Numbered from the stretch's first letter, positions 18,123 to 38,967 are shown. The stretch is DNA of 64,000 bases from Acidobacteriota bacterium (GCA_963666055.2 CAXWPH010000001.1:1-64000); one strand, 5' to 3'. The notes: a model not told the origin generated them from the sequence alone. Numbers and translations: made by a program.

Positions 18123-20078
18123 CTACTCGGCCGACTCGGGCAGGGAGAAGGCGATCCACTCGGCCGGATCGTCGTTGCTGCCGACGGCGACGACGATGTA
18201 CTGACGTCCCTGGTGCATATAGGTGATCGGCGCTCCGGTAACGCCCGCTGACAGCTCGGTCTCCCAGAGCTGCGTGCCATCGGCCTTGTCGTAGGCGCGG
18301 AATTTGTTGCCGTTGACTTGGATGCCGAGTATCGCGTCGCTGCTCTCACCGAGAAACAGCAGGGTCTTGGTGAGCATCGGTGCCGGACGACCAAGCATTC
18401 CCAGCGGCGGAAGGTCGAGACCCTCGAGCAGCGGATGGTCGAGCGGGCCGTCACCGTTGGCCGCCATCCAGACCTTCTCGCCGCGGTTCATATCGTAGGC
18501 GGTGATGCGTCCGTACGGTGGCTTGAAGATCGGTAGCCCGTCGAGGGTCGGGACTCCCGGACCCTCGCCCCACTCGTAAGCGAGCGTCGCCTCCGGATCG
18601 GACGGCTCGGAGAGCGGATAGACGTTCGGCATGGTGTGCGAGACGGCGTAGTAGAAGCCGGTCTCCGGGTCGAACGCACCGGTGTTCCAGTTGCCCGACC
18701 CCCAGCCGCCGGGGAAGATCAAGGTGCCCTGTTTACTTCCAGGGTCACCGCCAACGACCGACGGCGGCGTGAACATGGGCCCCAGTATGAGGGGCTCGAT
18801 GAGCTCCAGAGCGCGTGCCCGCAGCTCCGGGGTGAAGTCGATCAGGTCGTCTTCGCTGAACCCCTGCATATCGAACGGCGGTGGCTTGGTGGGGAAGGGC
18901 TGCGTCGGCGACAGCTGCTCGCCGGGCACCTCCGACTGCGGCACGGGGCGCTCCTCGATCGGCCACACCGGCTCCCCTGTCTGGCGATCGAATACATAGA
19001 GAAACCCCGTCTTGCTGGGCTGCATCACCGCCTTGATTCGCTTGCCCTCCACGGTGATCTCGCCAAGCGTCGCCGGGCCTACGGTGTCGTACTCCCAGAC
19101 GTCGTGATGCACCATCTGGAAGTGCCAGACGCGCTTACCGGTCTTGGCATCGAGCGCCACGAGGCTGTTGGAGAACAGGTTGTCGCCCGGTCGATGTCCG
19201 CCGTAGTAGGCCGCCGTCGGCGCCGTCAGAGGCACGTAGACGTAGCCGAGCTCCTCATCCGCCGTGGCGCAGCACCAGGACCCCAAGTCGCCCGAGTACT
19301 TCCAGGAATCGTCTCCCCAGGTGTCGTTGCCGAATTGCCCGGGCTTCGGAACCACATTGAAGGTCCACAGCAACTCGCCGGTGCGCACCGAATATCCGCG
19401 TACATCCTCGGGCACCGCTTCCTTGCGGTTTCCACCGTCGCCGGCGCCGCCCGTGATCCCGGCTATGACGATCACGTCGCCAACGACGATCGGGCCCGCC
19501 GACCAGCGGTAGTTGCCGGCCCGCTGGTGGGCAATGTTGAGGTTGAGCCGGCCCCGATCGCCGAAATCGGCAAACGGCTCGCCGGTCCTTGCGCTGAGCG
19601 CGTAGAGGTAGTCGTTGCGCACCAGGAGCAGCCGTCGATCCGACCCCTCGCCCCAGGTATCGATACCGCGCGGGCTTCTGCCCCTGGCCTCGCTCAAGGT
19701 CGGCGCAAATGGCTGCTGTTCCCAAATCGTCTCGCCGGTTCCGGGGTCGAGGGCACGCAGTAGCCCGACGCCGTTCGGCGCCAGCAACATGCCGTCGACC
19801 ATGATCGGCGTCGACCTGAAATAGCCCGGAATCCGCACCTCGGGGTAGGCGTCCTCGAACGCCGGGTCTACGGCCGGGCGACGCCAGGCAACCCGCAGGT
19901 CGGCAATGTTGTCGCGATTGATCTGCGCCAGCGGCGAGTAGCGTGTAAACGCCTTGTCGCCGCCGAAGTAGGGCCACTCGCCGGGCGCCCGTTCACCCTG
20001 GGCGTGCGAGGCGATCGGCCCGCCCCCGACCATCATCAGGAGCACGCCACCGCTTATCAACCGTTGCAAACTGGACAC
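18123..20078 (-). CDS. PQQ-dependent glucose/quinate dehydrogenase-like protein, periplasmic (no N-terminal TM bundle)
   Basis: WPYFGG...RYSPL.QI, GGHRPGDNLF, WHFQMVHHDVWEYD, PVWPIEERPVP, PTQPFPTKPP and KPPYGRITA motifs; AAGGAG RBS. Confidence 0.88.
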   Translation of the reverse strand: MSSLQRLISGGVLLMMVGGGPIASHAQGERAPGEWPYFGGDKAFTRYSPLAQINRDNIADLRVAWRRPAVDPAFEDAYPEVRIPGYFRSTPIMVDGMLLAPNGVGLLRALDPGTGETIWEQQPFAPTLSEARGRSPRGIDTWGEGSDRRLLLVRNDYLYALSARTGEPFADFGDRGRLNLNIAHQRAGNYRWSAGPIVVGDVIVIAGITGGAGDGGNRKEAVPEDVRGYSVRTGELLWTFNVVPKPGQFGNDTWGDDSWKYSGDLGSWCCATADEELGYVYVPLTAPTAAYYGGHRPGDNLFSNSLVALDAKTGKRVWHFQMVHHDVWEYDTVGPATLGEITVEGKRIKAVMQPSKTGFLYVFDRQTGEPVWPIEERPVPQSEVPGEQLSPTQPFPTKPPPFDMQGFSEDDLIDFTPELRARALELIEPLILGPMFTPPSVVGGDPGSKQGTLIFPGGWGSGNWNTGAFDPETGFYYAVSHTMPNVYPLSEPSDPEATLAYEWGEGPGVPTLDGLPIFKPPYGRITAYDMNRGEKVWMAANGDGPLDHPLLEGLDLPPLGMLGRPAPMLTKTLLFLGESSDAILGIQVNGNKFRAYDKADGTQLWETELSAGVTGAPITYMHQGRQYIVVAVGSNDDPAEWIAFSLPESAE

Positions 20079-21324: not shown

Positions 21325-23289
21325 GTGAATTGGAGGATCAACGCGAACGACAAGCGGCTCGGCATGGACCGGCGGATCACCCGCCGAGACCTCCTCAATG
21401 GCTCCGCGGTGGCCATAGGTGCCTCGCTCGCCGGGCGCGAAGCAGCCGGCCAGCCCGATGGCCGCGTTCGATCTGCGTCGCAGCGACCGGAGGACTACTA
21501 CCCGCCCAAGCTCACCGGAATGCGCGGCAGTCACGAAGGCTCGTTCGAGGTGGCGCACGAGATGCGCTACGGCAAGACCTGGGACAACGCCGAGGAGTCC
21601 GGGGAGCACTACGACCTGGTCGTCGTTGGCGCCGGGCTCAGCGGGCTCGCCGCGGCCCACTACTTCCGCAAGGCGCTCCCCGAAGCCAAGGTCCTGATCC
21701 TCGACAACCACGATGACTTCGGCGGACATGCCAAGCGCATCGAGTTCACCGTTGGCGATCGACAGCTCATCGGCTACGGCGGCACGCAGTTCATCACCGG
21801 CTACTACCCGGACGCGGGTAAGCAGCTGCTCGAGGACATCGGGGTAAGCGCCGAGCGCTTCCCTGGCGGCTCGGCGAACGATCTGTACAGCGAGCTGGGG
21901 CTTCGCGGCGGGGTGTTTTTCGACCGCGAGAGCTTTGGCGTCGACCGCCTGGTCGTAGGCGAGCCACGCCGTGCGCGGGGACCACAAGCGCGGCGGCGGT
22001 GGACGGAATTCCTTGGGCAGACGCCGCTGTCAGAAGCGGCCAAGGCGGGCATTCTGAAGCTCTACACCGAGGAGCGCGACTATCTGCCGGGACTCACCGA
22101 CGACGAGAAGATCGCCCGACTGCGGAGGATGAGCTATCAGAGCTACATCCTCGACGTCGTCGGTGTGCACCAGGATGTCATTCCCTATCTGCTGCGCCGC
22201 GGTGATCCGAACGGCGCCGCCGGCATCGACTCGTACAGCGCCTGGGGCGCCTTACGGAGCGGCTCGTTTCCCGGCTTTGGCGGTCTCGGCCTCGAGCGAC
22301 CCGCTCGTAATGCCGCGCCTGGCGACAACCCTTTCCAGGGTATCCACTTTCCCGATGGGAACGCCGGTATCGCCCGCCTGATCGTCCGCTGGCTCATCCC
22401 GGCGGCGCTGCCGGGAGGGACGATGGAGGACTCCGTGACTACACCGATTCGCTACTCCGAGCTCGACAAAGCCGGCAACCCGGTGCGGATCCGGCTTAGC
22501 AGCACGGTGGTAGGAGCGCGGCACGCCGGCGATCGGCGCAGCGCGAGGGAGGTCTCGGTGACCTATGTACAGAACGGACGCGCCCTTCGCGTACGTGCCG
22601 GCAGCTGCGTCATGGCTTGCTACAACGCCATGATTCCGTATCTGTGCCCGGAGATCCCCGCAGACCAGCAGGCAGCGCTGAAGATGGCGGTGCGCAAGCC
22701 TTACGTCTACACGCAGGTGGCGATCAACAACTGGACCTCGTTCGCGAACCTGGGCGTCGGCGCCATTCACAGCCCAGGAGCGTTCCACAAGACCATCGAT
22801 CTCGACTGGGGAGTCAACGTCGGCGACTACCGTCACTCGGCCTCGCCTGACGAGCCGATTCTGCTGTGGTTGGAACGCATTCCGATCCGACCGGGCCTGT
22901 CGGCAAGGGATCAGTTCCGCGCCGGCCGCGAGGAGCTGCTGGCAACGTCGTTCGAGACCTTCGAGCGCAACATCCGCGATCAGCTAGGCCGCGCCCTCGG
23001 CGAAGGAGGCTTCGATCCGGCTCGCGACATCGCCGGAATCACGGTGAATCGCTGGCCACACGGCTACGCAAGCGGCGGCAACGACCTCTACGACCCCGAC
23101 TGGAGTTACGACGAGGCGCCCTGGGTGGTCGGCCGACAACGCTTCGGACGGATCACCATCGCTAACTCGGACGCGGCAGCGATCTCGTTGACGCAGGCGG
23201 CATTCGAGCAGGCCCACCGAGCCGTTCAGGAGCTTCTAACCGACGTGATTCGACCCGAGTTTCAGTACCCGTGGGCGGAGCGCACCTGA
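21325..23289 (+). CDS. Spermidine dehydrogenase (SpdH)-like FAD flavoprotein, Tat signal (copy 1)
   Basis: TRRDLLNG, YYPP.LTGMRGSH, GAGLSG, DNHDDFGGHAKR, HFPDGNA, NRWPHGY and IANSDA motifs; GTG start inferred. Confidence 0.82.
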   Translation: MNWRINANDKRLGMDRRITRRDLLNGSAVAIGASLAGREAAGQPDGRVRSASQRPEDYYPPKLTGMRGSHEGSFEVAHEMRYGKTWDNAEESGEHYDLVVVGAGLSGLAAAHYFRKALPEAKVLILDNHDDFGGHAKRIEFTVGDRQLIGYGGTQFITGYYPDAGKQLLEDIGVSAERFPGGSANDLYSELGLRGGVFFDRESFGVDRLVVGEPRRARGPQARRRWTEFLGQTPLSEAAKAGILKLYTEERDYLPGLTDDEKIARLRRMSYQSYILDVVGVHQDVIPYLLRRGDPNGAAGIDSYSAWGALRSGSFPGFGGLGLERPARNAAPGDNPFQGIHFPDGNAGIARLIVRWLIPAALPGGTMEDSVTTPIRYSELDKAGNPVRIRLSSTVVGARHAGDRRSAREVSVTYVQNGRALRVRAGSCVMACYNAMIPYLCPEIPADQQAALKMAVRKPYVYTQVAINNWTSFANLGVGAIHSPGAFHKTIDLDWGVNVGDYRHSASPDEPILLWLERIPIRPGLSARDQFRAGREELLATSFETFERNIRDQLGRALGEGGFDPARDIAGITVNRWPHGYASGGNDLYDPDWSYDEAPWVVGRQRFGRITIANSDAAAISLTQAAFEQAHRAVQELLTDVIRPEFQYPWAERT

Positions 23290-23504
23290 GGCGAGGGAGG
23301 TGCACCGATCGCCGAGGGCAAAAAGGGTGAGGAGAGCTCGTCCATTGCTGGTGCCTCCCTGTGCACCTACAATCCGATGGGAAACTGCAGTTTTCTTGAA
23401 CATGAAGTGCGCTTACAACGCGGGGCGGGCGGAAGCGCTGGCGTGCACGTAGATTTTCACGGCCCAGCTCAACACCACGTTCCGATCGGTGAAGGAGTAG
23501 TGAG

Positions 23505-25028
23505 ATGAGCAAGAAGGACGACGAGAACGGCGGCCGGCGCGTAAGCCGCCGGACCTTCGCAAAGGGCTCGGTCGCCGCTGGCACCGCGGCGGTGGCCCTT
23601 CCCAAGTCGCTGTTCGGCGCCACTCCGGCGACGACAGCCGCGACGACTAAGACCCATGGCCGTGCAGCGCGCGTCGAGATGCGCACCGAAACCGCCGCCT
23701 ACGGTGGCAGCGGTGCGACTCCGCTGACGGCGCCGGTCGCCAAGAAGCCCAGCGTCAATGGCTGGACAGAGGGCCTGACCATTCCCCACGAGTACTACAC
23801 GGAGCCGCAGCACTTCGACGCCGACGAGGCGTTCGTGGGCGAGAACTTCTGGCAGTACACCGATCAGGCGAGCCGTATTCCGAATCCCGGCGATTTCTAC
23901 GTGTTCGAGTTCGGGCGCTCCGAATCTATTCTGATCGTCCGCGGACAGGACAACGAGATAAGAGGCTTCTACAACGTCTGCCGCCACCGCGGCTCGCGAC
24001 TGTGCCGCCACGACGCGGATGCCAAACCGAGCGACCCGCGCCTGTCGGTCAAGCAGCTTGGTCAGAGCGGTAGCTCACCGGTGTTCCGCTGCCCATACCA
24101 CGCCTGGACGTACGACACCGAGGGCAGCCTCATCTACGCCTACGGCATGCAGGACGACTTCGACCCGGCCGACAACGGCCTGCTCCCGTGCCACACGCGG
24201 GTCGCCGAGGGTCAGGTCTTCGTCAACCTGTCGAAGTCGGAGACCCCACCGGACTTCGAGTCGGTGGTAGCTCGCTTGCGCGCCCTCGCTCCGAAGTACA
24301 GCCTCAAGGACCTGAAGGTCGTGGCCCGTGAGTACTACCCGATCAACGCCAACTGGAAGCTGGCGCTGGAGAACTTCAAGGAGTGCTACCACTGCGGGGC
24401 GGCGCATCGGCCGCTGGTCACCACCCACAACTGGGATCACGACATCAGCGGCGAACAGAAGGCTCAAAAGGCCGCCGCGGTCGCCGCTTGGGTGCCAGAG
24501 GAATATCGGCGCCGGCGACGCGGCAACCAGCAGCAGGGCGGCCAGGGCATGGGAGGCGGTATGAGCGGTGCCGGCTCCGAGTACGACTCGCTCCAGTTGA
24601 CGGGACAGCTCAATCCGGGCTTCGTTACAGGCACCATAGACGGTAAGGCCGCGTCGATTCTGCTGCCCAACATCGACGACTGGCACCACGAGACCAACGT
24701 TGCCACAACAGCCGAGTCAACCGGCTACTGGCAGTGCTACGACGATCACGTTGCGGTGGCTCGGTTCACGCCGCGGACGGAGAACTTCACCGATTGCGAG
24801 ATCGTCTGGTTGGTGCACCCCGACGCCGTCGAGGGCCGCGACTACGACCCCGACAACGTCAAGGCGCTCTGGCACGTCACCATCCAGGAGGACATCTGGG
24901 TCACCGACAACAACCACGCCGGCATCGAGTCGAGTGCCTATTCCGCCGGTCGATACTCGATCATAGAGGGCAGCCCGGCCCGCTTCGTGGGCTGGTACAT
25001 GAAGGAGGTCGTCAAGGCGGGCAACTGA
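23505..25028 (+). CDS. Rieske non-heme iron oxygenase alpha subunit (GbcA/choline monooxygenase-like) with twin-arginine signal (copy 1)
   Basis: CRH...CPYH Rieske ligands; NWKLALENFKECYHC...H and QED iron ligands; N-terminal SRRTFAK plus hydrophobic stretch; AAGGAG RBS. Confidence 0.88.
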   Translation: MSKKDDENGGRRVSRRTFAKGSVAAGTAAVALPKSLFGATPATTAATTKTHGRAARVEMRTETAAYGGSGATPLTAPVAKKPSVNGWTEGLTIPHEYYTEPQHFDADEAFVGENFWQYTDQASRIPNPGDFYVFEFGRSESILIVRGQDNEIRGFYNVCRHRGSRLCRHDADAKPSDPRLSVKQLGQSGSSPVFRCPYHAWTYDTEGSLIYAYGMQDDFDPADNGLLPCHTRVAEGQVFVNLSKSETPPDFESVVARLRALAPKYSLKDLKVVAREYYPINANWKLALENFKECYHCGAAHRPLVTTHNWDHDISGEQKAQKAAAVAAWVPEEYRRRRRGNQQQGGQGMGGGMSGAGSEYDSLQLTGQLNPGFVTGTIDGKAASILLPNIDDWHHETNVATTAESTGYWQCYDDHVAVARFTPRTENFTDCEIVWLVHPDAVEGRDYDPDNVKALWHVTIQEDIWVTDNNHAGIESSAYSAGRYSIIEGSPARFVGWYMKEVVKAGN

Positions 25029-25051
25029 TCCCTAGCGAGTTACCGCAGCGT

Positions 25052-25083
25052 CGCAGGAGTCGATCTACGGGTCGGCTCCCGCG
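25052..25083 (+). terminator. Stem-loop after Rieske copy 1
   Basis: CGCAGGAGTCGATC-TACG-GGTCGGCTCCCGCG, homologous to the hairpin after copy 2. Confidence 0.5.
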
Positions 25084-25331
25084 TTGCTCATTGGATGCTG
25101 CGCCGCGGGGCGCGCCTGAGCCCGTACCCGCCGACCACAGGGCCGAAGTGGAGGAAACCCGCCGCGCCTATTGTGGTACCGCCTGCCACCGTGGTATTCA
25201 TCCTTCGGGCGACTGTGCCGGGTCTGCGTTGAGAGTGTCGCACGATGCCCCAGCCCGACTGACTCGAACGGTTACCGACGAATTCTTAGCGGCTCGAGAT
25301 CGATCAGATCCAACCGGCGAGGCAAGTACAG

Positions 25332-26843
25332 ATGAGCAAGAAAGACGACCACGACGAGAACGGCGGCCCGCGCGTAAGCCGTCGAACCTTCGCCAAGGGC
25401 TCGGTCGCGGCGGGCACCGCTGCTGTCGCCCTCCCCAAATCGCTCTTTGGCGCTACCCCGGCGACGGCCGCCGCAACGACGGCTACCTACGGTCGCGCCG
25501 CCCGCGTCGAGGCGCGCAACGAGAACATTGGGTACGGCGGCCGCGGTGCGGCTCCGCTCACCGCGCCGGTCGCCAAGAGGGCCAGCGTCAACGGCTGGAA
25601 AGAGGGCCTCACCATTCCCGCCGAGTACTACATCGAGCCGAAGCATTTCGAGGCCGACGAGGCGTTCATCGGTGAAAACTTCTGGCAGTACACCGATCAG
25701 GAGAGTCGCATTCCGAACCCAGGCGACTTCTACGTCTTCGAGTTCGGCCGCTCCGAGAGCATTCTCATCGTGCGCGGCAAGGACAACCAGGTGAGGGGCT
25801 TCTACAACGTCTGCCGCCACCGCGGCTCGCGGCTCTGCCGTCACGACGCCGATGCCAAGCCGAGCGACCCCCGCCTGTCGGTCAAGCAACTCGGACAGTC
25901 CGGTAGCTCACCGGTGTTCCGGTGCCCGTACCACGCTTGGACGTACGACACCGAGGGCAGCCTGATCTACGCCTACGGCATGCAGGACGACTTCGACCCG
26001 GCCGACAACGGCCTGGTTCCGTGCCACACGCGGGTCGCCGAGGGGCAGATCTTCGTCAACCTGTCGAAGTCGGACACGCCGCCGGATTTCGATGAGGCAG
26101 TTAGCTCGCTCACAGCTCTGGCTCCCGAATACCACTTGAAAGACCTAAAGGTCGCGGCCCGCGAGTACTACCCGATCAGCGCCAATTGGAAGCTGGCGCT
26201 GGAGAACTTCAAGGAGTGCTACCACTGCGGCCCGGCTCACCGGCCGCTGGTCACGACGCACAACTGGGATCACGACCTCAGCGATCAGCAGAAGACTGAG
26301 AGGGCCGCGGCGGTTGCCGCGTGGGTCCCGGAGGAGAGCCGGCGGCGACGTGAAAACGAAGATGCAGGCATGGGTGGAGGAGGCATGGACGGCACGCCCG
26401 GCTACGAACGCTTGACCGGGCTGCTCAACCCGGGCTTTGTCACCGGGACGATCGACGGCACGCAGGCGGCACCCTGGCTGCCTGGGAGGAAGGGAGGCGA
26501 CCACCGGACGGTGATCGCCACCACCGCAGAGTCGACCGGGTACTGGCAGTTCTACGACGATCACGTCATGGTGGTGCGGTTCACGCCGCGCACCGAGAAG
26601 CTCACCGATGCCGAGATCGTCTGGCTGGTGCACCCCGACGCAGTCGAGGGTCGCGACTACGATCCCGAAAAGGTCAAGGGTCTTTGGCACGTCACCATCC
26701 AGGAGGACATCTGGATCACCGACAACAACCACGCTGGGGTCGAGTCGAGTGCGTACAGTGGCGGTCGCTACGGCACCCTCGAAGGCGGCCCGTCGAGCTT
26801 CGTCAACTGGTATATGAAGGAGATCGTCCAGGCCGGCGATTGA
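25332..26843 (+). CDS. Rieske oxygenase alpha subunit with twin-arginine signal (copy 2, tandem paralog)
   Basis: Same motifs as copy 1; N-terminal half nearly identical. Confidence 0.88.
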   Translation: MSKKDDHDENGGPRVSRRTFAKGSVAAGTAAVALPKSLFGATPATAAATTATYGRAARVEARNENIGYGGRGAAPLTAPVAKRASVNGWKEGLTIPAEYYIEPKHFEADEAFIGENFWQYTDQESRIPNPGDFYVFEFGRSESILIVRGKDNQVRGFYNVCRHRGSRLCRHDADAKPSDPRLSVKQLGQSGSSPVFRCPYHAWTYDTEGSLIYAYGMQDDFDPADNGLVPCHTRVAEGQIFVNLSKSDTPPDFDEAVSSLTALAPEYHLKDLKVAAREYYPISANWKLALENFKECYHCGPAHRPLVTTHNWDHDLSDQQKTERAAAVAAWVPEESRRRRENEDAGMGGGGMDGTPGYERLTGLLNPGFVTGTIDGTQAAPWLPGRKGGDHRTVIATTAESTGYWQFYDDHVMVVRFTPRTEKLTDAEIVWLVHPDAVEGRDYDPEKVKGLWHVTIQEDIWITDNNHAGVESSAYSGGRYGTLEGGPSSFVNWYMKEIVQAGD

Positions 26844-26867
26844 TCTCCTGACGAGTCGCTACGAATG

Positions 26868-26906
26868 CGCGGGAGCCGATCTGCCGGTCGGTTCCCGCGT
26901 TTTGTT
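26868..26906 (+). terminator. Rho-independent terminator
   Basis: CGCGGGAGCCGATC-TGCC-GGTCGGTTCCCGCG followed by TTTTGTT. Confidence 0.7.
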
Positions 26907-27193
26907 GATAGCTACGTGAAGGCGTCATGCAGCGCGCGGCGACCTAGTCGCACCTCAGACGGCGGAGCGAGCTAATGTCGAAGAAAACTCCGGACGGGAT
27001 CAGCGGCGCCAGGCTCGCTGGCACGGCCTTGAGCGATCGAAAGCGATGACGCGTTGACTACACCGTCCAACCACCTCCGGTGTTGCGTTCTGGCCCAGGT
27101 GCATAGGGCTCGCAAACGCCACCATCTGGAACCGTCCGGAGATCTCTGGCACCCTTGCCGGCGATCTCGCACCGACCGGACCCGAGGGGCACC

Positions 27194-29185
27194 ATGACGA
27201 AGAACGATCGACAGCTCGGAATGGACCGCGACATCACGCGGCGTGACTTCCTGGGTGGCACCAGCGTTGCCATCGGTGGCTCGCTGCTCGCCGCCGGAAC
27301 GGTTAGCGCATCACCGGCCGTGCCTGGAACGGCAGCAAAACAGACAGCGGTGTCCTACCCGACGACCTGGAAGGTCGGCGACTACTACCCACCCAGGCTC
27401 ACGGGCATGCGCGGCAGCCACCCGGGCTCGTTCGAGGCGGCGCATGCGGTGCGTGACGGCAAGCGCTACGACAACGTTACCGACGTCAGCGAGACCTATG
27501 ACCTGATCGTCGTCGGCGGCGGGCTCAGCGGGCTGGCGGCCGCCTACTACTTCAAGAAGGCGCTGCCGGAGTCGAAGATTCTGATTCTCGACAACCACGA
27601 CGACTTCGGCGGACACGCCAAGCGCAACGAGTTCGAGGTCGATGGCCGTACCGTCGTCACCTATGGCGGCACGGTGTATCTGACAGGAGCCTATACGCAC
27701 GAGGGCGAAACACTCCTACGCGACATCGGTCTCGACTGGGATCGCTTCAACAACACCACCGCCTCCAGCCGTGATCTATACGAGGGTATGGGCCTTCAAC
27801 GCGGCGTATTCTTCGATCGGGAGACCTTTGGCGAGGACTACCTCGCTATCGGCGAGCCCCGATCCGGGGCCAGCGCTGCCGACTGGGAGGGGTTCCTCGC
27901 CAGCGCGCCGCTCTCGGCGGCGGCGAAGCGCGACATCACGCGCCTGCACACCGAGAACGCTGATTACCTTCCGGATCTCAGTCGGGAGGACAAGATCGAG
28001 AAGCTGCGCCGCATGAGCTATCAGGACTACATCCTCAACGTCGTCGGCGTGACGGCGGATGTGGTCCCCTATTTCCTCAAGCGTACCCTTGGTGGCCCCA
28101 ACGGCGCTGCCGGCATTGATTCGCTCAACGCGTATGCGGCGTTCCGACACAACTCGCTCCCCGGACTGAACGGCCTCCGACTCGGGGATCGTCCGGATCG
28201 CAGCTGGCTCGGCGACACCCACAACCCGCTCGAGGGTATCCACTTCCCAGATGGCAACGCCGGACTCGCACGCCTGATGGTGCGGTGGCTGAACGCCGAC
28301 GCGCTGCCCGGCAACACGATGGAGGACTCGGTCACCACGCCGGTGCGCTACGAGACGCTGGACCGGCCCGACAACGACGTCCGCATCAGGCTCAACAGCA
28401 CCGTGATCGACGTCACCCACGTGGGCGAGCGGCGCTCCGCGAGTGAGGTAGCGATCACCTACGTAACCGGCGACACGGCCTACCGGGTACACGGCAGCAC
28501 CTGCGTGCTGGCTTGCTACAACGCCGTCATTCCCCACATCGTGCGGGATCTGCCGCAGGAGCAAAAGGAAGCGCTCCACATGGCGGTGCGCACCGCCCGG
28601 GTATACACCAACGTGCTGGTCCGCAACTGGCGGGCATTCCACGAGCTCGGCCTCAACGGCATCCACTGCCCAGGTGGGTTCCACCAGAGCATGAGTCTCG
28701 ACTGGTCGACCAAGATCGGCGATTACGGCTTTCCCACGTCGCCCGACGAACCGATCGTGGTGCGTATGAACCGCGATCCGATCATGCCGGGCCTCAACGC
28801 TCGCGACCAGTTCCGCGCCGGACGCGAAGACATCCTGGCGACCTCGTTCGAGGACTTCGAGCGCAATATCCGCGATCAGCTCGACCGCGCCCTGGGGGCG
28901 AGCGGCTTCGACGCCGCCGAGGATATCCTGGCGATCATCGTCAACCGCTGGCCGCACGGCTACGCCGGTGCCGCCAACGACCTCTACGACCCCGACTGGG
29001 GCTACGACGAGGCACCGTGGGTGCAGGGACGCAAGCGCTTCGGCCGCATCACGATAGCCAACTCCGATGCCGCCGCCATATGCCTGACCCAGGCAGCGTT
29101 CGACCAGGCACACCGGGCGGTGCAGGAACTGATCACCGACGTGCTGCGCCCGGAGTTCCAGTACCCGTGGGCGGAGAGGACCTGA
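27194..29185 (+). CDS. SpdH-like FAD flavoprotein, Tat signal (copy 2)
   Basis: TRRDFLGG, GGGLSG, HAKRNEF, HFPDGNA and NRWPHGY motifs; GAGGGG RBS before ATG 27194. Confidence 0.85.
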   Translation: MTKNDRQLGMDRDITRRDFLGGTSVAIGGSLLAAGTVSASPAVPGTAAKQTAVSYPTTWKVGDYYPPRLTGMRGSHPGSFEAAHAVRDGKRYDNVTDVSETYDLIVVGGGLSGLAAAYYFKKALPESKILILDNHDDFGGHAKRNEFEVDGRTVVTYGGTVYLTGAYTHEGETLLRDIGLDWDRFNNTTASSRDLYEGMGLQRGVFFDRETFGEDYLAIGEPRSGASAADWEGFLASAPLSAAAKRDITRLHTENADYLPDLSREDKIEKLRRMSYQDYILNVVGVTADVVPYFLKRTLGGPNGAAGIDSLNAYAAFRHNSLPGLNGLRLGDRPDRSWLGDTHNPLEGIHFPDGNAGLARLMVRWLNADALPGNTMEDSVTTPVRYETLDRPDNDVRIRLNSTVIDVTHVGERRSASEVAITYVTGDTAYRVHGSTCVLACYNAVIPHIVRDLPQEQKEALHMAVRTARVYTNVLVRNWRAFHELGLNGIHCPGGFHQSMSLDWSTKIGDYGFPTSPDEPIVVRMNRDPIMPGLNARDQFRAGREDILATSFEDFERNIRDQLDRALGASGFDAAEDILAIIVNRWPHGYAGAANDLYDPDWGYDEAPWVQGRKRFGRITIANSDAAAICLTQAAFDQAHRAVQELITDVLRPEFQYPWAERT

Positions 29186-29342
29186 TCGCGTCACGGAGGG
29201 AGGACGGCAACGCATTAGAGGTCCATCCGGCACTCGGATCCCCGGAACACCGAGCTGATCTCGTCCGCAACAGAGGGCTTCAGCCCGAGAACACGCAAAC
29301 CTCGAGGTCCTGTGGCTCGTCCTCTTTTAGGGGAGGTACACC

Positions 29343-31355
29343 GTGAACAAGACTGACGGCCAGCTCGGCATGGATCGTGACATCACACGGCGCGATTTCC
29401 TCAACGGCACCAGCATCGCGATCGGTGGCTCGCTGCTGGGCGCCGGAACTGCCGGCGCATCACCAGCCGCACCCGGAACCGCGGTAAAGCAAGCGGGGCT
29501 GCCCTACCCCACGACCTGGGAAGTGGGTGACAACTACCCACCCAGGCTCTTGGGCATGCGCGGCAGCCACCCGGGCTCCTTCGAGGCGGCGCATGCGGTA
29601 CGCGACGGCAAGCGCTACGACAACGTTACCGACCTCGACGAGACCTATGACCTGATCGTGGTTGGAGGCGGCCTCAGCGGGCTGGCGGCCGCCTACTACT
29701 TCAAGAAGGCGCTCCCGGAGTCGAAGATTCTGATTCTCGACAACCACGACGACTTCGGCGGACACGCCAAGCGCAACGAGTTCGAGGTCGACGGCCACAC
29801 GGTGGTGACCTACGGCGGCTCCGTGTACATGACCGGTGCCTATACGCCCGAGGGCCTGACGATGCTCCAGGACATCGGCCTCGACTGGGACCGATTCAAC
29901 AGCACCACTTCCACTAGCTACGACCTGTATGGAGATGGCTACGGAGGAGTGGGCAAGATGGACCTTCAGGCCGGGGTCCTCTTCGATCGCGAGACCTTCG
30001 GGGAGGATCACCTTGCCGTCGGTGAGCCGCAGGGCCGCGCTAGCGCCGCCGATTGGGAGCGCTTCCTCGCCGGTGCGCCGCTCGCGCCGCAGACCAAGCG
30101 CGACATCGTCCGTCTGTACACGGAGGACGCCGACTATATGCCGGGCCTCAGTCGAGAGGAGAAGATCGCGAGGCTGCGCCGCATGAGCTATCAGGACTAC
30201 ATCCTCGACGTCGTCGGTTTGACGCCGGACGTGGTTCCCTACTTCCTGAAGCAGACGCTGGGGGGCCCGAATGGCGCCGCCGGCATCGATTCGCTCAGCG
30301 CCTACGTGGCGTTCCGGCACAACTCGCTCCCCGGGCTCCGCGGCCTCGGGCTCGGGGATCGTCCGGCTCGCAGCTGGCTCGGCGACACGTACAACCCACT
30401 GAATCGTCTCCACTTCCCCGACGGCAACGCCGGCCTCGCACGCCTGATCGTGCGATGGCTCAACGCCGACGCGCTGCCCGGCCACACGATGGAGGACTCG
30501 GTTACCACGCCGGTTCGTTACGAGAGTCTGGACCGGCCTGACGACGACGTCCGCATCAGGCTCAACAGCACCGTGATCAACGCCACCCACGTGGGCGATC
30601 GACGCACCGCAAGCGAGGTAGCGGTGACCTACGTAACCGGCGACACGGCGTACCGGGTGCGCGGCAGCACCTGCGTGCTGGCCTGCTACAACGCCGTCAT
30701 TCCTCACATCGTGCGGGAGCTGCCGCAGGAGCAAAAGGAAGCGCTCCACATGGCGGTGCGTACGGCCCGTGTCTACACCAACGTCCTCATCCGCAACTGG
30801 CGGGCATTCGTCAAGCTCGGCATCAACGGCGCCCACTGTCCGGGGAGCTTCCACCAGTTCTTCAGCCTCAGCTGGACCACCAGGATCGGCGACTACGACT
30901 TTACCGAGTCCCCTGATCAACCGATCGTGGTGCGGATGAATCGCGATCCGATTGCACCGGGCCTCAGCGCTCGCGACCAGTTCCGTGCCGGCCGCGAGAA
31001 CATCCTGGCGACCTCGTTCGAGGACTTCGAGCGCAATATCCGCGATCAGCTCAACCGCGCGCTGGGGGCGGGTGGCTTCGACGCCGCCGAGGACATCCTG
31101 GCGATCATCGTCAACCGCTGGCCGCACGGTTACGCCGGTGCCGCCAACGAGCTCTACGATCCCGACTGGGGCTACGACGAGCCACCGTGGCTGCAGGGAC
31201 GCAAGCGCTTCGGCCGCATCACGATCGCCAACTCCGACGCCGCCGCCATATGCTTGGCCCAGGCAGCGTTCGACCAGGCGCATCGGGCGGTGGGCGAGCT
31301 GCTCACCGACGTGCTGCGCCCGGAGTTCCAGTACCCGTGGGCGGAGAGGACCTGA
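29343..31355 (+). CDS. SpdH-like FAD flavoprotein, Tat signal (copy 3, close tandem paralog of copy 2)
   Basis: TRRDFLNG and the same motifs; GGAGGT RBS; long DNA tracts identical to copy 2. Confidence 0.85.
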   Translation: MNKTDGQLGMDRDITRRDFLNGTSIAIGGSLLGAGTAGASPAAPGTAVKQAGLPYPTTWEVGDNYPPRLLGMRGSHPGSFEAAHAVRDGKRYDNVTDLDETYDLIVVGGGLSGLAAAYYFKKALPESKILILDNHDDFGGHAKRNEFEVDGHTVVTYGGSVYMTGAYTPEGLTMLQDIGLDWDRFNSTTSTSYDLYGDGYGGVGKMDLQAGVLFDRETFGEDHLAVGEPQGRASAADWERFLAGAPLAPQTKRDIVRLYTEDADYMPGLSREEKIARLRRMSYQDYILDVVGLTPDVVPYFLKQTLGGPNGAAGIDSLSAYVAFRHNSLPGLRGLGLGDRPARSWLGDTYNPLNRLHFPDGNAGLARLIVRWLNADALPGHTMEDSVTTPVRYESLDRPDDDVRIRLNSTVINATHVGDRRTASEVAVTYVTGDTAYRVRGSTCVLACYNAVIPHIVRELPQEQKEALHMAVRTARVYTNVLIRNWRAFVKLGINGAHCPGSFHQFFSLSWTTRIGDYDFTESPDQPIVVRMNRDPIAPGLSARDQFRAGRENILATSFEDFERNIRDQLNRALGAGGFDAAEDILAIIVNRWPHGYAGAANELYDPDWGYDEPPWLQGRKRFGRITIANSDAAAICLAQAAFDQAHRAVGELLTDVLRPEFQYPWAERT

Positions 31356-33634: not shown

Positions 33635-35536
33635 CTACTTCAACCCGTTCGCCAACATCAGCTCCTGAACGGCTCGATCCGCCTGATCGATGGCGACGTT
33701 GGTATACGCCGCCGCACCAGCGTCGGCGTTGGCGATGGCGATCTTTCCGAAGGGCTTGCGACCGAGCACATGAGGACGCTCGGCATCGGGCACGTCTGGG
33801 TCGGCGAGCGTATCGTAGGTGTAGGCATAGCCGTGCGGCCAACGGTTGGCGGTGATCGCCAGGATGTCCTCGGACGGGTCGAAGCCGCCGCCCTCGAGGG
33901 CGCGCGTCAGCTGATCACGAATCTCCAGCTCGATGGTTTCGAACGAGGTCATCAGCATGTCGAGCATGCCGGCGCGCTGCTGGTCCTTGCGCGGCAAGCC
34001 AGGCTCGTTGGGGTTGCGCACCATGTGCAACACGATGGGCTCGTCGGGAGATTGTGTGCATTCGTAACCCCCCATCGACACGGGATAGTCGAGGCTGCAG
34101 GAGCTGTGGTACATGGCCGGATAGCTGATGCGGGAGACTCCCAGCTCCTTGAATGCCCGCCAGTTCCTGATGAACACGTTGGTGTACATCATCGGTACCT
34201 TCACCGCGTAGCCGAGCGCCTCCTTCTGCTCTTGCGGAAGGTCGGGGACCAGGTATGGAATAGCGTGGTTCCAGCAGGCGAGCAGACAGTTGCGGGCTCG
34301 CACCCGCACCATCTTGCCGTCCCGCACGTAGGCGACGCGCACCCAGTCGGCGTGCTCGGGCGCGCCCTCGTGCTCCACCCGTACGACGGTGCTGTCGAGG
34401 CGCAGCCGCCCTGTGGCCCCTTGCTCGTCGAGGCGATCGTAGCGCAGCGGGGCTTTTAGCACCGATTGCATGTCGTGGTCGCCGGGAAGCGCGGCGGGAA
34501 CCAGCCGGTTGATCAGCAGGCGCGCTATGGTGGCGTTGCCGTCTGGGAAGTGGAAGCGGTAGGCCCGGCTGCCCGGCCAGCGCGGCTCGAGGCCGAGGTC
34601 GAGGCCGTCGAATCCGGGCGCTCCGCCCTGCGCCGCCTCCAGCGCCGGCAACGTATCGATTCGCTTGTTGTTTCGATAGCCGCGGCCGAGGAAGAACTTG
34701 ATCGCCTCCGGGCTGACCTTTGCCACTTCGAGCAGGTAGTCCTGGTAACTCGTTCTGGCGAGGCGGGCGCGCTTCTCGGCCCGGCCTAGGCCGGTCATGT
34801 AATCGCGGTCGCCGGTGTGGAGCCGGATCAGATCCTGGCGCGCCTGCTCCGAGAACGGTGCCTGGCGGAAGAACTCCTCCCAGGACGCGTCTCCAGGCCC
34901 GACTACCAGCCGGTCGGCGCCGAAGGTCTCGCGATCGAAGAAGGTCGCCGAGTCCAACCCCGCGTAGACATCGCTGTCGACAAATTCGCCGGCGCGCTCT
35001 ACCTCGATGCCCAGATCCCGCACCAGAGCCTTGGCAGCATAGCTGTAGGGGAACGGTGAGACGATGCTCTGGGTGCCGCCGTAGCCGATCCAGGTCCGTC
35101 CCTTGTGGGTGAACTCGTTGCGCTTGGCGTGTCCGCCGAAGTCGTCGTGGTTGTCGAGGATCAGAACGGTCTGATCGTTGCCGAGCGCTTGACGGAAGAA
35201 GTGGGCGGCTGATAGTCCCGAGAGCCCGCCGCCAACGACCACCAGGTCATAAATCTCGCCGGAATCCGCCGCGCCAGACAAGCTCTCGTAGGCGCCATCA
35301 CGCAGCCGGTGCCCCACCTCGAACGAGCCCTCATGGCTGCCGCGCAGTCCGGTGAGGCTGGGTGGGTAGCTGGTAGCGACACCCTCCGGCGTGAGGTTCG
35401 ATCCTTTGAGCCCGCGGAGCGCGCTGCGTGTCGCCGCCCACGCGCCAGCGCTGCCCGCCGCGAAGCCGTTGACAAAGTCGCGCCGCGTGATGCCGCGGTC
35501 CATGCCGAGCTGACGTCCCTTGACCCGATCTACCAT
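33635..35536 (-). CDS. SpdH-like FAD flavoprotein, Tat signal (copy 4, divergent)
   Basis: TRRDFVNG, YPPSLTGLRGSH, HAKRNEF, HFPDGNA and NRWPHGY motifs; lacks the RPEFQYPWAERT tail. Confidence 0.85.
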   Translation of the reverse strand: MVDRVKGRQLGMDRGITRRDFVNGFAAGSAGAWAATRSALRGLKGSNLTPEGVATSYPPSLTGLRGSHEGSFEVGHRLRDGAYESLSGAADSGEIYDLVVVGGGLSGLSAAHFFRQALGNDQTVLILDNHDDFGGHAKRNEFTHKGRTWIGYGGTQSIVSPFPYSYAAKALVRDLGIEVERAGEFVDSDVYAGLDSATFFDRETFGADRLVVGPGDASWEEFFRQAPFSEQARQDLIRLHTGDRDYMTGLGRAEKRARLARTSYQDYLLEVAKVSPEAIKFFLGRGYRNNKRIDTLPALEAAQGGAPGFDGLDLGLEPRWPGSRAYRFHFPDGNATIARLLINRLVPAALPGDHDMQSVLKAPLRYDRLDEQGATGRLRLDSTVVRVEHEGAPEHADWVRVAYVRDGKMVRVRARNCLLACWNHAIPYLVPDLPQEQKEALGYAVKVPMMYTNVFIRNWRAFKELGVSRISYPAMYHSSCSLDYPVSMGGYECTQSPDEPIVLHMVRNPNEPGLPRKDQQRAGMLDMLMTSFETIELEIRDQLTRALEGGGFDPSEDILAITANRWPHGYAYTYDTLADPDVPDAERPHVLGRKPFGKIAIANADAGAAAYTNVAIDQADRAVQELMLANGLK

Positions 35537-35764
35537 CGAACCCTCCTGCACAGATCTAAGGGGTCCTGGCGATCACTGTCAACTGGGGCTGCTAGTGGGA
35601 CAGGTTGATCCAGGCTCCCCCGAAACCCTCCGTGAATCGGTTGTCTTTGCCGTTTGTCGTCGGTAGAGTCCGGACCTCGCTGTCAATCTGTCACTGGACG
35701 AACGTAGCGGTATCCGCCTGACGAACCCGGTGGCCTCGGCTTTGGCGAAGGGAGGGACATCAAG

Positions 35765-36145
35765 ATGCAAGGTAAGTGCCTGTGTGGAGGCGTGCAGTAC
35801 GAGGCCAGTGATTCTCAACTGATGGCGCACTGCCATTGCTCGCGATGCCAGCACAGCAGCGGAACAGCGCATGGCACGGTAGTGATGGTGAAGCCCGAGA
35901 ACTTCAAGATCACGCAGGGCGCCGACCTCGTGCACAAGTACGAAGAGGAGCCGTACACGGCTCGCGTCTCATGCTCGAACTGTGGTGGCAACCTCTACCA
36001 CGGCGAGATCTTCATCGAGGCCGGCACGCTCACCGAGGATCCAGGCGTGCGCCCGACGATGCACATCATGGTCGACTACAAGGCGCCATGGTTTGAGATC
36101 ACCGACGGCCTACCGCAGCACGGGGAGTGGCCGCCTAGCGACTGA
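35765..36145 (+). CDS. GFA family (glutathione-dependent formaldehyde-activating) Zn protein
   Basis: G.CLCG.V, CHCSRC, CSNCG and P..HI....KAPW motifs; GGAGGG RBS. Confidence 0.85.
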   Translation: MQGKCLCGGVQYEASDSQLMAHCHCSRCQHSSGTAHGTVVMVKPENFKITQGADLVHKYEEEPYTARVSCSNCGGNLYHGEIFIEAGTLTEDPGVRPTMHIMVDYKAPWFEITDGLPQHGEWPPSD

Positions 36146-36190
36146 GTGCCGCCGGTTGCCGGTCGCAGCGCTGACCAACTCGACGTTTGC

Positions 36191-36229
36191 GCCCCGCCGC
36201 TCGATTCCCGGGTTCGGCGGGGCACTTTT
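36191..36229 (+). terminator. Rho-independent terminator after the GFA gene
   Basis: GCCCCGCCG ... CGGCGGGGC followed by ACTTTT. Confidence 0.6.
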
Positions 36230-36275
36230 CTCATTGGGCGAGGTCTGCGTGCAAGAGAGACTGCGACAGGCGCTT

Positions 36276-36431
36276 CGCAAACGATTCGGCCGCATCACGA
36301 TCGCCAACTCCGATGCCGCCGCCGTCAGCCTCACCAACGCTGCGTTCGACCAGGCGCACCGTGCGGTACAGGAACTTCTGACCGACGTCATCCGACCGGA
36401 GTTCCAGTATCCCTGGGCCGAGCGAACCTGA
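36276..36431 (+). pseudogene. Isolated 3' fragment (last 51 codons) of an SpdH-like gene
   Basis: RKRFGRITIANSDAAA...TDVIRPEFQYPWAERT matches the C-termini of copies 1-3; an in-frame GTG at 36249 could yield a 60-aa peptide. Confidence 0.75.
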
Positions 36432-36514: not shown

Positions 36515-37297
36515 ATGACGTGGACAAAGCATCGTTGTTGGCTCTGGCTGTTTGCCTGCGTCTTGCTGATCGCAGCCGCGGGCCCGGCCGAGCCGGGGCA
36601 GAATCCGTACGCCGCCGCGAGCGACGTCGCCGCCGGCCAGCAGCTGTTCTTGAAGAATTGTTCGTCGTGCCACGGTGGGAACGCCACCGGAGGACGAGAG
36701 CCTAACCTCCGACGTCGCCCGTACCGCAACGGCAACGAAGACGCGCAGGTCTTCTCGATCATCCAGAACGGGCTGCCCGGGATGCCCTGGAATGGCCTCA
36801 ACGACAGGAGCGTGTGGCGAATTGTCGCCTATCTCGGCTCCTTGAGCAGCGGTGCGGTGGAGGTTGCGGGCGATCCGACGCGGGGGCGCGACCTGTTTTA
36901 CGGCAGAGCCGACTGCGCCCTGTGTCACATGGTGAACGGCGCCGGCGGTCGCCAGGGGCCGGACCTGAGTTGGGTGGGATGGAGACTCGGCCCCGATGCA
37001 CTGCGCACGGCGCTTTTGGAGCCTGGCGCTAAAGTCGAGCCGCAATGGTGGAGAGCCGCGGTCTCCACCCGGGCCGGTGAGCAGATCGACGGCTACATAA
37101 TCGACGAGGATCAGTTCACCATTCGTCTCCTCGACGGCAACGACGGCTTGCATGCCCTCAGAAAGCGCGACCTGAATCGACTCGACAGGCAACTCGACTC
37201 ACTGATGCCAGCTTTCGGCCGGCTACTGACCGAGGACGAGCTCACCGACGTCATCGCCTACCTAGCCGGCCTCAACGGAGTGGAGAGGGGTCCATGA
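36515..37297 (+). CDS. Di-heme c-type cytochrome with putative heme-binding C-terminal domain
   Basis: CSSCH and CALCH, GPDLS, and SLMP....L...EL.D.IAYL motifs; signal peptide; ATGA overlap with the next gene. Confidence 0.85.
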   Translation: MTWTKHRCWLWLFACVLLIAAAGPAEPGQNPYAAASDVAAGQQLFLKNCSSCHGGNATGGREPNLRRRPYRNGNEDAQVFSIIQNGLPGMPWNGLNDRSVWRIVAYLGSLSSGAVEVAGDPTRGRDLFYGRADCALCHMVNGAGGRQGPDLSWVGWRLGPDALRTALLEPGAKVEPQWWRAAVSTRAGEQIDGYIIDEDQFTIRLLDGNDGLHALRKRDLNRLDRQLDSLMPAFGRLLTEDELTDVIAYLAGLNGVERGP

Positions 37298-38967
37298 GAT
37301 ACCGCGGCACGGCTCGGTTGCCAGGATTGGGGTTGCTGGGGTTGGTTGTGTCCGTGGTGGTTGCTGCGTTCTCGTTACACGAAGGGGCTACCGCTGCTGC
37401 TGCACAGGCACCGGGCGTAGCGCCTCCGGTGACCGCCGAGCGCCTCGAGCAGGCAGCCGATGAGCCGCACAACTGGCTGATGTATACGGGCTCGTACGCC
37501 AGCAATCAGTACAGCGCGCTAGCACAGATCGACCGCCACAACATCGCCGACATGCGCGTCGAGTGGGTTCATCAGTTCCGCACGCTGTCGACCGTCGAGA
37601 CCTCCCCGGTCGTCGCGGATGGGCTGATGATCATCACCGAGTCGCCCAGCAACGTGATCGCCCTCGACGCGGCCACGGGCCGACCCTACTGGAAGTACAC
37701 GCACCCCGTGCCCAGGAAGCTCACGATGTGCTGCGGCCTGAACAACAGGGGCGTCGCCATACTCGGCGATTCAGTCTACGTCGGCACCGTCGACGGACGG
37801 CTGCTGGCGCTCGATCTCAAGACCGGGAGCGTGATCTGGAACGCTGAGGTCGCCCGTCCCGACGCCGGCTACAGCATCACTGCGGCACCATTGATCGTGA
37901 AGAACAAGGTCATCACTGGCGTGGCTGGCGGCGAGTATGGCATTCGAGGCTTCCTGGATGCCTACGACGCCAAAACCGGTGAACGCCTGTGGCGTTTCTA
38001 CACGATCCCGGGTGAAGGCGAAGTCGGCAACGACTCGTGGGGCGGCGACTCCTGGCAGCGCGGCGGCGCCCCGACCTGGTTGACGGGATCGTACGACCCC
38101 GAGCTCGACCTGCTCTATTGGGGAACCGGCAACCCGAGCCCGGATTGGAATGGCGACGTCCGACCGGGCGACAACCTCTACGCCAACAGCGTCGTCGCTC
38201 TCGATCCCGAAAGCGGACAGCTTCGCTGGTACCACCAGTTCACGCCACACGACACCCACGATTGGGATGCCAACCAGACCATGGTGTTGATGGATGCCAC
38301 CGTCGACGGGACACCGCGCAAGCTGCTGCTGACCGCCAACCGAAACGGCTTCTACTACGTCATCGATCGCGAGAGCGGCGAGTTCCTTCGGGCCAAAGCC
38401 TACGCCAAGCAGACTTGGGCGTCAGGCATGGATGAGCAGGGGCGGCCGATCCTCATTCCCGGCCTCGAACCCAACGAAGAGGGTGTGCTTGTCTACCCGG
38501 GCTGGACGGGCGGCACCAACTGGTGGTCGCCCAGCTACAGTCGCAGCTCGGGTCTGTTCTACGTGCGGTCCATCGACGCCGCCGACGTGTACTACAAGCG
38601 CGAGGAAGAATACGTCGAGGGCGATCTGTACTACGGTGGCACCACCGAGGCGGCCGACCATATGGCTAACGTCACGGCGGCGATTCGCGCCCTGGACCCG
38701 TTGACCGGTGACCTGCGATGGGAGTATCCGATCACTCCTTCAGTCTCCTTCGGCGCTGGAATTCTGACGACGGCGGGCGGTCTGCTGTTCTCCGGCACTG
38801 TCGACGGGTATCTATTCGCCCTCGACGATCGCACCGGTGACGTCCTCTGGCACCTCAGCGTCGGCGGAACCGCGCACGCCGGCCCCATGACCTATAGCGT
38901 CGAGGGCCGCCAGTTCATCAGCGTGGCGGTGCAGAACTCGCTACTTACCTTCGCACTCCCAGAATAG
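37294..38967 (+). CDS. PQQ-dependent dehydrogenase, alcohol/methanol family
   Basis: NWLMY...YSAL.QI, vicinal CC (MCCGLNNRG), GGEYGIRG, WGTGNP, RPGDNLY, TPHDTHDWD, ANRNG and GGTNW motifs. Confidence 0.88.
   Translation: MRYRGTARLPGLGLLGLVVSVVVAAFSLHEGATAAAAQAPGVAPPVTAERLEQAADEPHNWLMYTGSYASNQYSALAQIDRHNIADMRVEWVHQFRTLSTVETSPVVADGLMIITESPSNVIALDAATGRPYWKYTHPVPRKLTMCCGLNNRGVAILGDSVYVGTVDGRLLALDLKTGSVIWNAEVARPDAGYSITAAPLIVKNKVITGVAGGEYGIRGFLDAYDAKTGERLWRFYTIPGEGEVGNDSWGGDSWQRGGAPTWLTGSYDPELDLLYWGTGNPSPDWNGDVRPGDNLYANSVVALDPESGQLRWYHQFTPHDTHDWDANQTMVLMDATVDGTPRKLLLTANRNGFYYVIDRESGEFLRAKAYAKQTWASGMDEQGRPILIPGLEPNEEGVLVYPGWTGGTNWWSPSYSRSSGLFYVRSIDAADVYYKREEEYVEGDLYYGGTTEAADHMANVTAAIRALDPLTGDLRWEYPITPSVSFGAGILTTAGGLLFSGTVDGYLFALDDRTGDVLWHLSVGGTAHAGPMTYSVEGRQFISVAVQNSLLTFALPE

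Follow-up and report, generated by a model that had tools for sequence, protein, structure and literature searches.

Tat-type group V Rieske oxygenases linked to a lipoprotein cytochrome c and SpdH-like dehydrogenases: a candidate periplasmic amine-oxygenating system in Acidobacteriota

We analysed a 64,000-nucleotide stretch of DNA, hereafter the window, from an Acidobacteriota bacterium (GCA_963666055.2, CAXWPH010000001.1:1-64000), in which an initial annotation had marked a candidate periplasmic Rieske oxygenase system. The window forms the first 64 kb of contig C1 of its genome (G000; 5.73 Mb, 95.7% complete); G, L, P, C and X label genomes, loci, proteins, contigs of G000 and public sequencing runs, respectively. 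Five co-oriented genes lie on the + strand in the order claimed for them: an SpdH-like flavin adenine dinucleotide (FAD)/haem b amine dehydrogenase with a GTG start (21325..23289), two group V Rieske oxygenase alpha subunits (23505..25028 and 25332..26843, the latter P0003) and two further SpdH-like dehydrogenases (27194..29185, with a TIGR01409 match above cut-off, and 29343..31355). The third Rieske gene is likewise present (P0001; 52483..53922, + strand), and a fourth SpdH-like gene lies on the - strand (33635..35551). All of the products carry twin-arginine leaders: SRRTFAK in the first two oxygenases, SRRDFAR with an LRA cleavage-like site in the third, and TRRDLLN, TRRDFLG, TRRDFLN and TRRDFVN in the four SpdH-like proteins in order of position, the first of which reads LL instead of the FL that had been reported. 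The five genes are separated by 158-351 bp and a terminator-like hairpin (26867..26900, + strand) follows the second Rieske gene, so that a single operon is not established; the hairpin is a consensus match alone, of a type found at chance rate, and a promoter scan gave no match.

All three Rieske proteins matched PF00355 and PF00848, and their best matches in the PDB were 3n0q, 4qup and 3vca (E ~1e-51 to 1e-55). An AlphaFold2 model of P0003 (predicted TM-score 0.80) matched 3n0q in Foldseek (E 3e-29); confidence was low across an insert in the Rieske loop (residues ~170-195), the position of which we therefore leave uninterpreted. In an alignment of 52 homologues, chosen by the analyst and mostly full-length matches, the Rieske ligands (C161, H163, C198 and H201), the mononuclear iron ligands (H298, H303 and D459) and the bridging E295 were invariant (52/52), as expected from the claim that the metal ligands are intact, and the residues of the iron site align with those of CntA and Stc2. 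P0003 also has a second near-invariant cysteine in its Rieske domain, at residue 231 (51/52), which aligned PDB relatives lack; a periplasmic Cys231-Cys169 disulfide is possible.

The window oxygenases are members of the group V Rieske oxygenase family, yet distinct from GbcA, Stc2 and CntA. With the group Vb proteins Stc2 (3vca/4qup), TM1040_3219 (3n0q) and GbcA/BmoA, which include their best sequence matches, they share the Rieske plus catalytic alpha fold (Foldseek TM to target 0.75-0.81), the ligands, the bridging Glu and the CxxC pair, with no beta subunit seen. Unlike Stc2 and GbcA, they have a Tat (twin-arginine translocation)-type leader and linker, the Rieske-loop insert, Phe for Asn at the position that marks groups Va and Vb, and links to cytochrome c and SpdH-like genes without a GbcB-type reductase. 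The GbcA equivalog model NF058607 scored 208-236 bits against a curated cut-off of 670. The group Va proteins CntA (6y8j), choline monooxygenases and OxyBAC share the bridging Glu, the Cys pair and an aromatic residue at the CntA Tyr203 position, but CntA is the remoter relative (E 6e-30, with little alignment over the C-terminal half), is cytoplasmic and uses CntB with NADH. Our trees did not include Stc2, CntA and other named enzymes, and kinship to these was judged from sequence and structure comparison, by which the clade lies nearer to Stc2 and 3n0q than to CntA. An aromatic residue at the CntA Tyr203 position is described as a cation-pi marker of quaternary-amine binding, with Tyr or Phe in group Va and Asn in group Vb (PMC7948474, section 6, excerpt). 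The equivalent residue 293 is Phe in 50 of 52 sequences, which is the group Va marker and not that of group Vb; because a leaderless oxygenase of G000 also has it, this Phe is not specific to the clade.

To define the clade, we called leaders by a regular expression (S/T/N/D-R-R-x-F) combined with hydropathy. The motif was found in 111 of the 122 nearest homologues, or 112 with P0029, which has it but was missed by the expression; the remaining ten have starts beyond the point where the motif would be, which for P0026 and P0077 coincide with the beginning of the core. Among 149 further representatives at 50% identity, of which 125 were parsed, the motif occurred in 5 of 11 clade members, the others having cut or aberrant N-termini, and in 0 of 114 non-clade proteins. 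We also assembled a control set of 70 leaderless-type oxygenase loci (L042-L111), 67 of which have a called oxygenase and 52 at least 700 bp downstream; every full-length clade gene in the fetched loci has the motif, compared with 0 of these 67 control oxygenases. Conservation of the leader across the homologue clade, proposed as a check by the initial annotation, is thus borne out. In the 52-sequence alignment, the motif (0.87) and the h-region (0.82) exceed the catalytic domain (0.64) in mean column identity, whereas the linker (0.25) does not, and the commonest c-region end is L-R-A/G-E, so that the leaders show the full pattern of a Tat substrate (S/T-R-R-x-F-L/A-K, h-region and cleavage-like c-region). 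Of 4677 called genes, 52 have the strict motif within their N-terminal 40 residues, whereas none of 3816 internal 40-residue windows contains it; it is therefore not a chance occurrence.

In quick trees, the leader-bearing oxygenases were monophyletic and nested within the leaderless group V (GbcA/Stc2) oxygenases, with leaders trimmed (SH-aLRT 100; 37 of 87 rows; branch 0.92) and also from the catalytic domain alone (SH-aLRT 99; 13 in, 18 out). The Rieske loop gives a second mark: with an insert of 17-27 residues, it is 32-44 residues long in the clade and mostly 15 outside it. TatC was found in G000, and the leader of Pseudomonas aeruginosa SpdH (PA3713), MTISRRDFL...ILRA, is tabulated among validated Tat substrates of that species (PMC6085387, excerpt). 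On these sequence features, the clade oxygenases are very probably exported by Tat with the Fe-S cluster in place. Action in the periplasm is likely given the conserved export-type leaders and the adjoining, similarly tagged flavin-haem dehydrogenase-like proteins.

A Pfam scan of the 49 open reading frames of the window found no FNR reductase, ferredoxin or beta subunit, as had been claimed. Across G000, PF00970 and PF14759 had no match, and the two PF00175 matches are an FPR-like protein and PyrK, with none of the 12 Fer2 matches fused to them; in the near-closed genome G004 (two contigs, 96%), which has 21 oxygenase matches, the sole PF00175 match is PyrK. The NAD(P)H reductase that defines classical two- and three-component Rieske oxygenase systems, an FNR-ferredoxin fusion or a protein of GR type, was therefore not found in G000 or, by PF00175, in G004, a result that fits independence of NAD(P)H. 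Although the genome-wide part of the reductase search thus agrees with the initial annotation, the absence of a reductase nearby failed as a discriminating sign and we rejected it as evidence. An FNR-ferredoxin gene occurs in just 1 of the 70 control loci, and phmmer with that reductase found no other; Pfam on 106 of 132 called control neighbours gave one FNR-ferredoxin protein and one Pyr_redox_2 fragment; and the leaderless oxygenases of G000 itself have no FNR-ferredoxin gene beside them either. Because control oxygenases nearly always lack a neighbouring reductase too, its absence is not diagnostic. The usual neighbours in the control loci are aminomethyltransferases, class III aminotransferases, NADH:flavin oxidoreductases and corrinoid/methyltransferase genes.

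The two candidate electron-donor families differ in how constantly they accompany the oxygenases. G000 encodes 16 clade oxygenases (14 distinct; three identical), three leaderless oxygenases, one of them split, and 34 SpdH-like genes or pieces, 30 of which are long copies. Five of the 14 distinct oxygenases have an SpdH-like gene directly beside them (null mean 0.17, reached in 0 of 2000 draws, with the caveat that paralogues are not independent) and eight have one no more than three genes away (null 0.47), with gaps of 11-85 bp at several loci. Other gene classes of G000 rarely adjoin SpdH (1 of 21 pyrroloquinoline quinone (PQQ) genes and 0 of 69 other Tat genes), and only 7 of the 34 SpdH-like genes adjoin an oxygenase. 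Window SpdH-like proteins share full-length homology with P. aeruginosa SpdH (7d9i, E 2e-126 for the 29343 product), the type of Tat leader and the His54/His562 haem-ligand motifs, both of which are present in 25 of the 30 long copies, including all four of the window; in SpdH, electrons are handed out through a surface haem b whose ligands have been identified (PMC12564564, excerpt). They differ from the P. aeruginosa system in having ~30 paralogues in G000 and in the link to oxygenases, for which no SpdH counterpart is described.

Outside the window genus, we scored 13 loci, leaving out three own-genus-like and two very short ones. SpdH adjoins the oxygenase in 2 of these 13 and in 0 of 70 control loci, and two genomes, G061 (100% complete) and G340, have an oxygenase but gave no match to SpdH at E <= 1e-30. 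The Rieske-SpdH adjacency noted at the outset is thus a real enrichment in G000 that is not kept across the clade. Because G061 and G340 manage without it, SpdH is not obligatory, and a role as universal electron donor is excluded.

A small cytochrome fared better. In 10 of the 13 non-genus loci (one convergent) and 0 of 70 controls, a monohaem cytochrome c gene directly follows the oxygenase; the two genes overlap by 4 bp in G340, and with RO denoting a Rieske oxygenase, G255 (L143) has the run SpdH-RO-RO-cytochrome and L032 the run SpdH-RO-cytochrome. The cytochromes have the features of class I His/Met lipoproteins, with an invariant CxxCH, Met100 in at least 90% and a lipobox in 40 of 46; a fold search found no match at E <= 0.001 and thus no close solved structure, and CjX183 (X183; PMC8981238, excerpt) was a weak match (E 0.001). 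In a 40-row tree, ten oxygenase-linked and four genus cytochromes clustered together (SH-aLRT 92), separate from PQQ-linked and other generic cytochromes (26 rows). The lipoprotein cytochrome c is a more constant partner of the oxygenase than SpdH. Cytochrome c had been one of the electron sources initially suggested, and this option stands, whereas SpdH as the donor throughout does not. A weak search for oxygenase fusions gave no Rosetta-stone evidence, and its two long matches, P0123 and P0124, were rejected as distant, leaderless, read-through-like proteins joined to unrelated genes.

The cytochrome subfamily is absent from the G000 assembly. In the window genus, its gene comes after an SpdH-like gene and not after the oxygenase; in G002 and G004 this SpdH-cytochrome pair lies between matches to the end of contig C12 and the start of C1 of G000. 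Two public runs that contain 92-93% of the window's words (X2 and X3) each have one 9,209-nt contig that joins the cytochrome gene to the window start and includes the extra 1 kb of G000; X1 and X20 had no such bridge among the pieces listed, and runs sharing a small fraction of window words were set aside. Based on this synteny and the bridging contigs, the C12-C1 assembly gap immediately before the window very likely contains the G000 cytochrome gene; this would place the cognate cytochrome gene and a further SpdH-like gene ~1.5-4 kb upstream of the contig start (1..15, + strand).

Taking these associations together, we tentatively propose that the clade oxygenases are periplasmic, amine N-dealkylating monooxygenases supplied from dehydrogenase to lipoprotein cytochrome c to Rieske centre without NAD(P)H. 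Their substrates are probably N-alkyl or quaternary amines, as suggested by group V kinship, the aromatic residue at the CntA Tyr203 position and the amine-catabolic neighbours. After export with clusters assembled, the oxygenase would bind an alkylated amine in the periplasm and hydroxylate the carbon beside the nitrogen, yielding an aldehyde and the dealkylated amine. Electrons would be delivered by the lipoprotein cytochrome, which is reasonably likely to be the direct redox partner and to dock on a surface remodelled by the loop insert; in the window genus, amine oxidation by SpdH-like proteins would charge it, and where SpdH is absent other dehydrogenases or a bc complex would do so. A path from amine to SpdH FAD, haem b, cytochrome c, Rieske cluster, Glu295 and finally Fe/O2, in which one amine oxidation pays for one oxygenation and those other sources charge the cytochrome without SpdH, is conceivable at somewhat under an even chance. 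The 16 oxygenases and ~30 SpdH-like copies would then form a broad periplasmic amine-stripping toolkit with one shared carrier. Lytic polysaccharide monooxygenases (LPMOs) served by cellobiose dehydrogenase or CjX183 (PMC8981238, excerpt) offer a likeness in principle alone, as extracytoplasmic oxygenases fed by haem without NAD(P)H. LPMOs differ in being copper enzymes with a high-potential site and an unrelated fold and substrate.

Several observations weigh against this proposal, and its chief weakness is that the energetics of the chain look uphill. His/Met cytochromes c usually have positive potentials. The catalytic onset of SpdH lies at -0.14 V versus Ag/AgCl (PMC12564564, excerpt), or ~+0.06 V versus the standard hydrogen electrode by our conversion, and oxygenase Rieske clusters are expected at ~-150 mV (PMC1847435, excerpt), with a value of -159 mV for cumene dioxygenase (bioRxiv 10.64898/2026.04.03.713453, excerpt). 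Residue 203 is Trp in 51 of 52 sequences, where high-potential Rieske proteins carry a marker Ser (PMC12445004, section 7, excerpt), and a NapC/NirT-type low-potential quinol oxidase was absent from four of the five genomes searched, with one weak match. Genomic context adds further difficulties: 6 of the 14 distinct G000 oxygenases have no SpdH-like gene within three genes, none of the 14 has a small cytochrome within that distance, L036, L028 and L146 lack the cytochrome gene and that of L041 is convergent, and G000 does have an FPR-like protein and free ferredoxins. In a ranking of 401 genomes, the seven top cytochrome scores (at least 182 bits; next 157) fell to the seven other oxygenase-bearing genomes, but this result is partly circular, as the profile holds sequences of five of the seven and the cut-off was set afterwards. 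For the mismatch in potential, either the insert retunes the cluster, or O2 activation pulls the uphill step, or a different explanation holds.

One such explanation is an exported peroxygenase, with periplasmic H2O2 as the oxidant and haem partners that merely prime or re-reduce the iron, as in LPMOs. Peroxide shunts of Rieske oxygenases usually give poor turnover, and no dedicated periplasmic oxidase is kept beside the clade oxygenases. Such an enzyme would spare two low-potential electrons per turnover, and there are precedents in CntA, which oxidises carnitine with H2O2 and no reductase (PMC7948474 and PMC10952381, excerpts), and in a bacterial LPMO primed by a c-type cytochrome (PMC8981238, excerpt); SpdH, however, is described as a dehydrogenase that passes electrons to haem (PMC12564564, excerpt). 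We consider a peroxygenase unlikely.

Direct reduction of the exported oxygenase by the surface haem b of SpdH, the leading idea of the initial annotation and similar to the service of LPMOs by cellobiose dehydrogenase, would leave the cytochrome as the respiratory acceptor of SpdH. This arrangement would agree with the proximity of the two genes in G000 (adjacent in 5 and within three genes in 8 of 14 distinct copies, with the 11-85 bp gaps), with the rarity of SpdH beside PQQ (1/21) and other Tat genes (0/69), with the joint expansion of both families and with the position of the genus cytochrome after SpdH rather than after the oxygenase. It is nonetheless quite unlikely: G061 and G340 have the oxygenase and the cytochrome without an SpdH-like match, SpdH is adjacent in 2 of 13 non-genus loci compared with 10 of 13 for the cytochrome, and adjacency, seen for only 7 of 34 SpdH-like genes and among paralogues that are not independent, also fits sequential steps of a pathway.

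Electron flow could also be reversed: the exported Rieske/Fe protein would work as a water-dependent hydroxylase or a dehydrogenase and pass its electrons to the cytochrome and on to the respiratory chain. Transfer from a low-potential Rieske cluster to a His/Met cytochrome would be downhill, PQQ dehydrogenases are frequent neighbours of the family from which the cytochrome subfamily derives, and periplasmic flavocytochrome hydroxylases work in this manner. Against this, group V enzymes that activate O2 have precisely the same His-His-Asp site, bridging Glu and Cys pair, and no O2-independent C-H oxidation is known at a His-His-Asp Rieske oxygenase site, which makes reversal improbable. Similarly improbable are oxygenases that stay in the cytoplasm, keep the RR leader as a chaperone tag or as a remnant without export function, and draw on general ferredoxins with FPR or on an unrecognised reductase: leaderless relatives also lack neighbouring reductases, so that hidden donors exist in the group, FPR-like and ferredoxin genes are present in G000, two proteins that start at the core (P0026 and P0077) might belong to the clade without having a leader, and the first two window oxygenases have a less classical c-region (PKSLFGA), but the full n/h/c architecture with LRA/LRG-E ends is kept across phyla, the lipoprotein cytochrome partner is extracytoplasmic, G004 lacks even FPR and the neighbours are mostly exported enzymes.

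In the literature searched, which covered few subscription journals, we found no description of an exported or cytochrome-fed Rieske oxygenase. Systems there are classed by their NAD(P)H-reductase/ferredoxin chain, and a word search of a 2025 review of the family (PMC12445004) found neither 'periplasm' nor 'membrane'. The clade may, with slightly less than even likelihood, represent a new class of electron chain, a cytochrome-fed exported Rieske oxygenase with a remodelled and possibly up-shifted Rieske site, in which self-fuelling N-dealkylation has been amplified in one marine-type Acidobacteriota genus. If so, Rieske oxygenases would gain an electron supply and a compartment new to the family, SpdH-type haem a suggested physiological acceptor, and aquatic and soil bacteria a previously unrecognised periplasmic route for the breakdown of alkylated amines; cofactor-free or electrode-driven Rieske biocatalysts could follow. 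The proposal also poses a testable redox question, namely how a cluster normally at ~-150 mV is reduced by haem proteins. Beyond the initial annotation, our analysis contributes the controls for reductase absence, the SpdH-free genomes, the cytochrome subfamily tree, the placement of the assembly gap and the mismatch in potential.

Among 401 genomes of the phylum, the clade turned up in eight; five of the eight are from the window genus, in which oxygenase and SpdH-like families have expanded together. It was also found in 2 of 201 genomes of the family of a Woeseia genome, which was alone among 401 genomes of its own phylum; sources include Acidobacteriota, Woeseiaceae and Candidatus Binatia, and annotations are all generic. 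Three identical oxygenase-SpdH cassettes lie in G000 at C2:337291, C2:405578 and C6:305099 (L010-L012), one of which adjoins a transposase-like gene and fragments resembling TatA/TatC, with a sarcosine-oxidase-like operon nearby. The window holds a C-terminal remnant of an SpdH-like gene (35982-36431, + strand), and such remnants also lie beside oxygenases in G002 and L145; their presence in several loci suggests active duplication and decay. Directly downstream of a clade oxygenase in L001 is an arginase/agmatinase-family protein with an apparent signal peptide (9474-10715), hinting at guanidino or polyamine substrates. Among the eight pieces listed for run X20, five short zero-mismatch RNA contigs fall on the two oxygenase genes; because the run was found with the window itself, gives neither strand nor level and may contain carried-over DNA, we did not count these as evidence.

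Further haem proteins are encoded in these genomes. A bc-type complex operon on contig C6 of G000 (L187:4352-9860) encodes a Tat Rieske protein, cytochrome b and a 967-residue cytochrome with eight CxxCH motifs. L030 (13556-16772) encodes a secreted protein that combines CxxCH with a weak match to the copper type II monooxygenase C-terminal domain (PF03712), with similar proteins in L001, L148 and L150; lying near PQQ dehydrogenases, these are possibly another haem-fed periplasmic oxygenase. Elsewhere in the window, Pfam identified an OpuAC-type ATP-binding cassette transporter, a glutamine-synthetase-like ligase, an aldehyde dehydrogenase, an NADH:flavin oxidoreductase and an ammonium transporter, neighbours that fit amine catabolism. 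At 36515-38967, a PQQ dehydrogenase gene comes after that of a dihaem cytochrome c, and a second PQQ dehydrogenase lies at 18123-20078.

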